Of a stretch of DNA of 64,000 nt, positions 8,347-49,755 are shown in pieces. How positions within the stretch are numbered: position 1 is the stretch's first letter; every line of letters starts with the position of its first letter. Source of the DNA: Nitrospinales bacterium (GTDB lineage: Bacteria; Nitrospinota; Nitrospinia; Nitrospinales; VA-1). The notes beneath the pieces are model-generated. The model did no database searches. It was given only the letters and a program-made list of their open reading frames with translations, and was not told where the DNA came from. The stretch lies in contig OZ253496.1 in assembly GCA_965262115.1 (NCBI GenBank), forward strand, positions 1,696,001-1,760,000, given 5' to 3'. A program made the position numbers and the translations under genes.

Positions 8347-8417
8347 GTCTGGCGAGCCGCCGGTGGCTGTGATACTCCCAACATTAGCTTCATGCCCCGA
8401 AGCAACTGTGTTAAATG

Positions 8418-9368
8418 TCAAGTGCTGGCAATGAGATTTTCATTCCAGAGTGTTTTTGTTTTGATCATGGTATTGATGATCGTTAATAACTTTCTCATGC
8501 ATGCGGTAATGGCAACTTTAAAGGGTTTGCCCTTTTCGATGAGGCGTGTGTAAAAGGTACGAATCACGGGATTATGCTGCATGGCAGTGACGGCGGCCAT
8601 GTATAAAGCGGCACGCACATTGGCGCGACCGCCCCAGATACACCGGCGGCCCCGGAACTTTCCGCTGTCCCGATTGAGGGGAGCGAGACCGATGAGGGCG
8701 GCGATTTGCTTCTGATTAAGAACTCCAAGTTCCGGAACCCCGGCCAAGAGGTTGACAGCCAGAACGGGACCGGCACCGGGAACACTTTGTATGATCTGGT
8801 CGTGCTCACGCCAGGCAGAACTGTTTTTGATGGTTCTGGAAAGGTCGCCATCGATTTTTCGCAAGCGTTTTTTAAGAGATTCGATATGCTCCTTAATGTC
8901 TTTACATATCCATTTTGGAGCTTGTTTTAGACGGGTTTTTTCTTTGGTCAGCATCTCGATCAACTGGCGACGGCGTGTCACTAGAGCTGAGAGTTCAAGA
9001 GATTCTTCGTCTTTGATTTTCCTGACCTCAGGACGTATGGCCTTGGCAAAATGGGCCAGCACAAGAGAATCAATGACATCGGTTTTTGCCAGTTTCCCGG
9101 TGGCTTTGGCAAAATCACGAACTTGCCGTGGGTTGACCACGGCTACTGGCAGTCGACCCGCAACCAGGGCCGAAGCCAACGGGATCTCTAAGCCGCCTGT
9201 GGCTTCCAAAACGATCAATGGAGGATTTAAGGCGGATAAACTCTCGACCAAACCAGCAATCCCTTCTTCATTGTTAGCGGTTTGCCAGGTTTCTTGAGTC
9301 ATGCTGTCAGCAACATCCAGATGGAGTTTAGAAATATCGATGCCAATAAAATGGGGTTTCTGATTCAT
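8418..9368 (-). CDS. IS110-family DEDD recombinase/transposase
   Basis: IGIDISK, LEATG, KTDVID (RuvC-like DEDD), SVPGAG, GLAP...DSGK (Tnp-domain Ser). Confidence 0.96.
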   Translation of the reverse strand: MNQKPHFIGIDISKLHLDVADSMTQETWQTANNEEGIAGLVESLSALNPPLIVLEATGGLEIPLASALVAGRLPVAVVNPRQVRDFAKATGKLAKTDVIDSLVLAHFAKAIRPEVRKIKDEESLELSALVTRRRQLIEMLTKEKTRLKQAPKWICKDIKEHIESLKKRLRKIDGDLSRTIKNSSAWREHDQIIQSVPGAGPVLAVNLLAGVPELGVLNQKQIAALIGLAPLNRDSGKFRGRRCIWGGRANVRAALYMAAVTAMQHNPVIRTFYTRLIEKGKPFKVAITACMRKLLTIINTMIKTKTLWNENLIAST

Positions 9369-9375
9369 AATTTGG

Positions 9376-9585
9376 TCTCCCAGCCTTGCCGATGCGGGCT
9401 CAGTGGCCCAGGCAACTGTTCGGGTTAATCAAAATAGGACACAACGATCTGCGCTTCGGGACGGGCTTAAAAGCCCAAGGGGTAAACGATCTATTGTGCC
9501 CTGAATCAAATCCTGGGAGCTTGTGGAAAACACAAAACCGGCTTCCCACAGGGCTCACAGGTACAACTACTACAAATTCCCCTTA
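9376..9585 (-). ncRNA. Predicted IS110 bridge RNA, copy 1 (ends approximate)
   Basis: Guides on minus strand: LTG 9478-9486, RTG 9454-9460, LDG 9412-9419, RDG 9385-9388, each pair flanking an internal hairpin. Confidence 0.8.
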
Positions 9586-9874
9586 TGAACAACATACAAG
9601 GGGTAAACTGGCAATATCTTTAACTTCTGGGCAAAAAGTTATCTCGGCTTGAGAAACTCCACTGGAACGTCATCGCGAGCTGCGGCGCGGCGATCCAGTT
9701 TTGTTTGCATCATGCCCAGAAGGGGTAAAATAAAGGCATTGTAATCTGCCACCGGCGGCTCGCCGGTTAACCCGAGATGCTGATCGAGAACAAAATGAAG
9801 ATAATGGAAATTACCAGCGGAGGTTCTCCGCCCACTAGCTGTGGAGGCAGGAGCAATGCCCATGGAGCGAGAGC

Positions 9875-48329: not shown

Positions 48330-48415
48330 AACTTTCCAAATATTTAAAGATTAGCGCGGAGTACCTCCGCAGGTAATTTGCAATATCTTTATCTTACCCC
48401 TTGTATGTTGTTCAT

Positions 48416-48625
48416 AAGGGGAATTTGTAGTAGTTGTACCTGTGAGCCCTGTGGGAAGCCGGTTTTGTGTTTTCCACAAGGCTCACAGGGTTTGATTCAG
48501 GGCACAATAGATCGTTTACCCCTTGGGCTTTTAAGCCCGTCCCGAAGCGCAGATCGTTGTGTCCTATTTTGATTAACCCGAACAGTTGCCTGGGCCACTG
48601 AGCCCGCATCGGCAAGGCTGGGAGA
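48416..48625 (+). ncRNA. Predicted IS110 bridge RNA, copy 2 (ends approximate)
   Basis: 5' stem-loop; LTG TTTACCCCT 48515-48523; RTG CCCGAAG 48541-48547; LDG ACAGTTGC 48582-48589; RDG CAAG 48613-48616. Confidence 0.82.
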
Positions 48626-48632
48626 CCAAATT

Positions 48633-49583
48633 ATGAATCAGAAACCCCATTTTATTGGCATCGATATTTCTAAACTCCATCTGGATGTTGCTGACAGCAT
48701 GACTCAAGAAACCTGGCAAACCGCTAACAATGAAGAAGGGATTGCTGGTTTGGTCGAGAGTTTATCCGCCTTAAATCCTCCATTGATCGTTTTGGAAGCC
48801 ACAGGCGGCTTAGAGATCCCGTTGGCTTCGGCCCTGGTTGCGGGTCGACTGCCAGTAGCCGTGGTCAACCCACGGCAAGTTCGTGATTTTGCCAAAGCCA
48901 CCGGGAAACTGGCAAAAACCGATGTCATTGATTCTCTTGTGCTGGCCCATTTTGCCAGGGCCGTACGTCCTGAGGTCAGGAAAATCAAAGACGAAGAATC
49001 TCTTGAACTCTCAGCTCTAGTGACACGCCGTCGCCAGTTGATCGAGATGCTGACCAAAGAAAAAACCCGTCTAAAACAAGCTCCAAAATGGATATGTAAA
49101 GACATTAAGGAGCATATCGAATCTCTTAAAAAACGCTTGCGAAAAATCGATGGCGACCTTTCCAGAACCATCAAAAACAGTTCTGCCTGGCGTGAGCACG
49201 ACCAGATTATACAAAGTGTTCCCGGTGCCGGTCCCGTTCTGGCTGTCAACCTCTTGGCCGGGGTTCCGGAACTTGGAGTTCTTAATCAGAAGCAAATCGC
49301 CGCCCTCATCGGTCTCGCTCCCCTCAATCGGGACAGCGGAAAGTTCCGGGGCCGCCGGTGTATCTGGGGCGGCCGCGCCAATGTGCGTGCCGCTTTATAC
49401 ATGGCCGCCGTCACTGCCATGCAGCATAATCCCGTGATTCGTACCTTTTACACACGCCTCATCGAAAAGGGCAAACCCTTTAAAGTTGCCATTACCGCAT
49501 GCATGAGAAAGTTATTAACGATCATCAATACCATGATCAAAACAAAAACACTCTGGAATGAAAATCTCATTGCCAGCACTTGA
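48633..49583 (+). CDS. IS110-family DEDD recombinase/transposase
   Basis: 316 aa; differs from copy 1 at AHFARAV versus AHFAKAI; DEDD and DSG motifs intact. Confidence 0.96.
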   Translation: MNQKPHFIGIDISKLHLDVADSMTQETWQTANNEEGIAGLVESLSALNPPLIVLEATGGLEIPLASALVAGRLPVAVVNPRQVRDFAKATGKLAKTDVIDSLVLAHFARAVRPEVRKIKDEESLELSALVTRRRQLIEMLTKEKTRLKQAPKWICKDIKEHIESLKKRLRKIDGDLSRTIKNSSAWREHDQIIQSVPGAGPVLAVNLLAGVPELGVLNQKQIAALIGLAPLNRDSGKFRGRRCIWGGRANVRAALYMAAVTAMQHNPVIRTFYTRLIEKGKPFKVAITACMRKLLTIINTMIKTKTLWNENLIAST

Positions 49584-49755
49584 CATTTAACACAGTTGCT
49601 TCGGGGCATGAAGTACCCGTGCCGGGCATAAAGATTAATGAAGAGGCCATCACAACCGATGAGGGGTCATAACATGCTGCCAATGTGCTTTTGGTGAGCC
49701 GAGAGTATCGTTGCTAGCGGTAAAAAGCTATTGCCCACTGCCTGCCCCTGCCAAG

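Follow-up and report, generated by a model that had tools for sequence, protein, structure and literature searches.

A compact IS110-group element whose joined ends very probably form a sigma70 promoter

The window, the entire 64,000-nucleotide stretch of Nitrospinales DNA analysed here, carries two copies of a small insertion sequence. We consider it very probable that this is an intact IS110-group element in which joining of the ends at a CT core brings a right-end -35 box and a left-end -10 box together as a sigma70 promoter, likely boosting the bridge RNA and the recombinase as in IS621. At the level of sequence, the arrangement of the split promoter is confirmed. Its reading as a junction promoter is well supported by the conservation of a fixed spacing among relatives, by the preference of this genome for a 17-bp sigma70 spacing and by the geometry of IS621.

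Element anatomy and the predicted split promoter

The recombinase gene occupies 48633-49583 on the plus strand and encodes 316 amino acids, including D11, E55, D97, D100 and S235. The protein scores above the curated cut-offs of both PF01548, the N-terminal DEDD domain, and PF02371, the C-terminal domain with the conserved serine, as expected of the IS110 family, and its active-site residues are intact and line up with those of IS621. Counting one core, the element is 1,199 bp long, with a left end of 231 bp (48402-48632) and a right end of 15 bp from stop to core, or 17 bp with the core. The first-pass annotation had given the right end about 18 bp, which is correct as to its shortness and incorrect as to its exact length. 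A long left end and a short right end are typical of the IS110 group (IS621-like). The CT core lies at 48400-48401 and again at 49599-49600, where it is the crossover dinucleotide and element terminus, and it is present once in the empty target. The arms of a 3-bp subterminal inverted repeat, AAC on the left (49589-49591) and GTT on the right (48407-48409, inside the -10 box), lie around the 14-bp donor, as had been proposed. The left donor (7 bp, 49592-49598) is paired by the left donor guide, and the host mini-repeat provides the left half of the target at 48393-48399 and the right half at 49601-49607. Membership of the IS1111 group was considered and rejected: that group has 7-17-bp subterminal inverted repeats and carries its RNA in a long right end, according to PMC11208160, as opposed to the 3-bp repeat and 15-bp right end found here.

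Genome-wide, the element has 26 left and 26 right ends. Left and right ends are clearly paired in 23 copies; of these, 15 code for all 316 amino acids, 6 have a common 10-bp deletion (264 amino acids) and 2 are divergent and frame-broken. The other copy in the window, copy 1, lies on the minus strand and extends from core to core over 8401-9600, with cores at 9599-9600 and 8401-8402 and its coding sequence at 8418-9368.

The -35 box, TTGACA at 49580-49585 on the plus strand, matches the sigma70 consensus at six of six positions and, as first noticed in the initial reading, holds the recombinase stop codon (TGA, 49581-49583). The -10 box, TATGTT at 48404-48409 on the same strand, matches at four of six positions, including the conserved T, the A and the last T, and shares sequence with both the right donor and the inverted repeat's right arm. 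When a single core connects the two ends, the product does read TTGACA, 17 nt and TATGTT. The same holds for copy 1, where the -35 box again sits on the stop codon (8416-8421) and the -10 box lies at 9591-9596, both on the minus strand. When the genome was joined to itself at random 200,000 times, a promoter scoring 10/12 or better was split across the joint in 362 cases, and a perfect -35 at the 17-bp spacing arose in 28. Masking the element leaves 157 distinct TTGAC/TA...T pairs at a spacing of 17 bp in the genome, compared with 32-78 at spacings of 12-23, and the genome encodes a canonical RpoD.

The crossover core had been annotated as CTT, and this was not borne out. The core is CT: three of the 26 right ends in the genome lack the following T, and among 80 distinct flanks from relatives CT is followed by T in 35, C in 22, G in 16 and A in 7. 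The third T is common to donor and target by coincidence. Sequence conservation among relatives stops right after CT. The 21-bp right end occurs exactly in 101 metagenome stretches, with recombinases that, where present, are 38-88% identical, and in these stretches the sequence is free to vary before the -35 box and directly after CT. The modelled junction is identical whether the core is read as CT or CTT.

No circle junction was detected in the genome, beside any of the 101 metagenome right ends or the 26 right ends in three congeners, in 228 loci (four matches with two mismatches were ordinary flanks), or in the Logan contigs of 8 of the 22 listed runs; the right end had no match in viral contigs. 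Run X20, whose nature as RNA is a guess, had coverage in 6 of 30 bins and at neither terminus of the element. The absence of junctions is weak counter-evidence, since assembled contigs drop rare forms.

Conservation in relatives and the integrated state

Relatives were chosen by protein and not by motif, and 80 of 149 confirmed loci were kept. Both gene ends were available at 74 of these, of which 17 lacked a matching right end and one a left end; the remaining 56 collapse to 32 distinct junctions (roughly 49-73% amino-acid identity) that share ancestry, so that junction counts are not independent events. In one alignment, rows L071 and L033 covered the wrong region and were disregarded. TTGAC is present at exactly 17 bp in 25 of the 32 distinct relatives and absent from the register in seven, and three spacer columns reach 0.2-0.3 bits among the 32 junctions. 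The -10 variants are TATCTT (17), TATGTT (9), TATATT (3) and TATGGT, TATGCT and TATAAT (one each); the last T is kept in 32/32, and the perfect TATAAT occurs in one relative. Part of the -10 conservation is circular: TAT was itself a left-end search term, which leaves positions four to six as the unbiased comparison, and the box shares bases with the donor and, through its final T, with the inverted repeat. Variation in the -10 box moves in the direction of TATAAT or TATGAT, including cases in which this destroys the inverted repeat. In six of the eight relatives whose stop lies upstream of TTGAC, this motif is kept, and therefore coding does not explain it. Selection clearly acts on the predicted promoter. 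The inverted repeat is perfect in 21/32 relatives, consistent with the 2-3-bp repeats that PMC11208160 describes for IS110-group donors, and its C/G pair covaries, with well-supported branches requiring at least four label changes.

The overlap of stop codon and -35 box has two possible explanations. The stop is the TGA of the -35 box in 21/32 protein-selected and 29/45 motif-selected distinct relatives; it lies upstream of the box in 8/32 and 11/45, and a spacer TAA is used in 5/45. The 21-bp right end offers a stop in two of three frames. As the overlap is usual in the clade yet not required, it fits compaction better than a dedicated function, and most likely a variable C-terminal tail runs on until the -35 box supplies a stop. 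It is unlikely, if compatible with this explanation, that the overlap is a control device, in which polymerase on the circle would, for want of room for a terminator, cross its own promoter, limiting re-initiation and yielding multimeric RNA. The short right end (15 bp, whereas IS621 has 105 bp), the frequency of the shared TGA and the lack of any plus-strand terminator match in the linear element are in keeping with such a device, whereas the relatives with an upstream stop or a spacer TAA suggest that the frame simply takes the first stop. We regard as similarly doubtful the wider proposal that a broad IS110 clade cut its right end down to -35 box and donor and thereby gained "lap" control, with self-limiting transcription and multimeric bridge RNA on the circle, unlike IS621 with its 105-bp right end. 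Were the overlap to control circle transcription, it would represent a new layer of IS110 regulation. We found no description of a -35 box overlapping a recombinase stop in a narrow search of openly available full texts.

In the integrated state, the linear copy has no plus-strand promoter match and a single weak minus-strand match at chance level. The flanks of 25 of the 26 left ends supply a -35 of at most 3/6. The outward -10 of the right ends reaches at most 2/6 in 26/26, the target placing a G-rich hexamer at this position, and no outward -10 was found beside the right end in 80 distinct flanks of relatives. Both window copies stand head-to-head with a divergent host gene, which lies 72 bp away in one case and 276 bp in the other, and neither has a co-directional gene immediately upstream; given the divergent neighbours, other copies would probably have to supply their RNA. 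Genome-wide, a co-directional gene lies upstream of 14 of the 26 left ends, by a crude ORF call. The copy at genome position 2013362 (plus strand) differs in that a -35 matching at 5/6 lies in its flank, with a spacing of exactly 17 bp to the left-end -10. The recombinase gene of this copy is among those with the 10-bp deletion, and the 5/6 match is compatible with chance; this copy is a possible constitutive source of bridge RNA in trans.

The first-pass annotation held that excision turns expression on. A switch is too strong a term: in IS621, excision itself needs low-level read-through RNA from the integrated form, and the junction raises expression afterwards (PMC13626964). A strict on/off switch, with a silent integrated element and all expression after excision, would agree with the lack of a plus-strand promoter match in the linear copy and with the divergent neighbours of the window copies. 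We nevertheless think it quite improbable: IS621 requires bridge RNA for excision and an upstream terminator abolishes it (PMC13626964), and the 14 co-directional upstream genes together with the flank -35 of the copy at 2013362 indicate that bridge RNA could come in trans.

The preferred reading, a junction promoter that boosts an already present low level of RNA, would work as follows, by analogy with IS621. Rare excision would become possible through a low level of RNA, produced by read-through or supplied in trans by another copy. The double-stranded circle would then be transcribed from about 48416, re-insert into the host mini-repeat named by the guides and thereby split the promoter again. 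Single-stranded circles and copy-out have been reported (bioRxiv 10.64898/2026.08.31.748434), and such circles would need a second strand before the junction promoter works. It is very improbable that the right-end motif has been conserved chiefly because the recombinase contacts it, its promoter likeness being incidental: the -10 box does overlap the right donor and an inverted repeat with a covarying C/G pair, and a fixed distance to the core would suit a protein site too, but the -35 box lies outside both the 14-bp donor and the repeat, a 22-bp IS621 donor lacking the -35 still recombines if RNA is provided in trans (PMC11208160), and the -10 variants move toward TATAAT or TATGAT even at the cost of the repeat.

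Predicted bridge RNA, targets and rearranged copies

The predicted bridge RNA, or leader, spans 48416-48632 on the plus strand, with its start taken from the IS621 register, and folds with a z-score of -3.5 (0/200 shuffles as stable). Computationally, four guides in the left end match target and donor, as in the IS110 group. The left target guide (48516-48523) has an 8-nt match to the left target and core (49/20,000 shuffles), and the right target guide (48541-48547) is altered together with the target in two divergent copies. The left donor guide lies at 48582-48589 and the 4-nt part of the right donor guide at 48613-48616, all on the plus strand. Among 50 relatives, 15 have both target guides agreeing, in order, with the flanks of the element itself, against a permuted mean of 0.27 and maximum of 3. 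The left donor is found in the element's own left end in 52 of 57 elements and the match tracks donor variants; likewise, the right-donor variant TG/AG tracks CAAG/CTAG. The two divergent copies, at 1834461 and 1931072 (plus strand, about 88% identical), have one base changed in both target guides and match G-loop targets. Judging by guides and targets, this is natural retargeting within one genome, possibly as one event, because 244 bp of right flank are common to both copies. The T-loop form of the target occurs in 13/15 right-flank clusters compared with 28/134 empty repeats.

The target is the hairpin end of a dispersed 39-41-bp host mini-insert, found in the window (48394-48401 with 49601-49640) and genome-wide. 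The genome contains 28 exact empty 13-bp targets. At one mismatch there are 210 units of the mini-insert; for 42 of them the genome also contains an exact empty site at another place, which was the case for none of 210 random controls. No Y1 (RAYT-type) transposase that might mobilise the mini-insert was matched in the genome, which is 94% complete. The mini-insert also lies at the end of orfA in an IS3-family element that is present in at least 17 copies (696100-696700), and 10 IS110 left ends sit in this IS3-borne mini-insert, giving three nested layers; these 10 copies are probably not independent insertions.

Several copies are associated with rearranged DNA. In all six congeners tested, the DNA upstream of the trigger-factor gene (window 48330-48401) maps to a tRNA-Leu region (1812477-1812696) beside which a different IS110 copy, at a distance of 67 kb, has its right end. 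As copy flanks appear to be swapped, IS110 copies are likely rearrangement points, mis-assembly being also possible. At genome positions 2144619-2144782 a duplication comprises the initial 163 bp of the left end and stops at an internal CT, and similar left-end duplications of 40 bp and 13 bp occur at loci L054 and L144; these could reflect insertion at internal CT sites followed by recombination. Two left-end starts lie back to back at 2519312-2519436, joined through the inverted repeat of the first hairpin. This 125-bp palindrome-like remnant looks like a rearrangement at the first left-end hairpin. The only Rfam match of the left end is to sX15, on the minus strand at 48486-48642 and antisense to the bridge-RNA region. 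At 35 bits (E 0.001) it falls below the cut-off of 55 and was rejected as a family assignment; sX15 might itself derive from an IS110 left end.

Comparison with known systems

IS621 of E. coli (PDB 8wt6) shares most features with the element described here. The recombinases are related (phmmer E 1.5e-30) and have the DEDD motif and the serine, the core is CT, the long left end contains target- and donor-binding loops, and the targets are a dispersed palindromic repeat. The first five bases of the right donor are identical and a 3-bp inverted repeat surrounds the donor. In the sequences of Supplementary Table 1 of PMC11208160, by our own labelling of the boxes, -35-like and -10-like hexamers stand in the same register at 17 bp. 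That paper reports that the IS621 circle remakes a sigma70 promoter across the core and that deletion of the -35 abolishes activity in cis until bridge RNA is given in trans. By our reading of its IS621 end sequences, the RNA starts at left-end position 15. This corresponds to 48416 here, the start that the first-pass annotation had predicted. According to PMC13626964, read-through RNA from the integrated IS621 is required for excision and the junction then boosts expression. There are also differences: the IS621 right end measures 105 bp rather than 15 bp, its -35 matches at three of six positions by our own reading as opposed to six of six here, where the box lies on the stop codon, its inverted repeat is ATA/TAT instead of AAC/GTT, its protein is distant and its target is another one, the target here being a 39-41-bp host mini-insert. 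The closest recombinase with a solved structure is that of ISCro4/IS622 (PDB 9t56; E 2.4e-33).

The searchable supplements of PMC11208160 contain no exact copy of the 21-bp right end. The 9-bp donor part of it occurs at least 490 and at least 985 times in two of these files, and the clade is thus probably included in the alignments of that study.

Other IS110-family elements provide further parallels. In ISEc21 (IS110 group) and ISEc11 (IS1111 group), abutted circle ends create a -35/-10 promoter, a 16-bp right end is enough in a mini-IS, and natural guide redirection is described for ISEc21/ISMch6 (PMC11187229). In contrast to the present element, that study reports no target duplication, ISEc11 has its RNA downstream and long inverted repeats, and ISEc21 targets IS3 catalytic codons, whereas the copies here enter IS3 only via the mini-repeat at the orfA/orfB boundary. 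For Pseudomonas putida, PMC12288879 reports that circles of ISPpu10 form a strong hybrid promoter from a right-end -35 and a left-end -10, as would be the case here. ISPpu9 of the same species also inserts in palindromic repeats, but its junction is no promoter and a native one is used, so an IS110 junction need not be a promoter; in this respect our element resembles ISPpu10.

As the initial reading had stated, promoter formation at the joint of IS110 circles is already established, being published for IS621, ISEc21, ISEc11 and ISPpu10, and the junction promoter itself thus adds little. The modest addition is a compact, 1,199-bp bridge system that is apparently recently active, belongs to a distant branch and has all its guides readable; its 15-bp right end is a likely minimal donor/promoter unit for engineering. 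The junction promoter is the published norm for the IS110 family, and here a known mechanism is met in a new, compact member.
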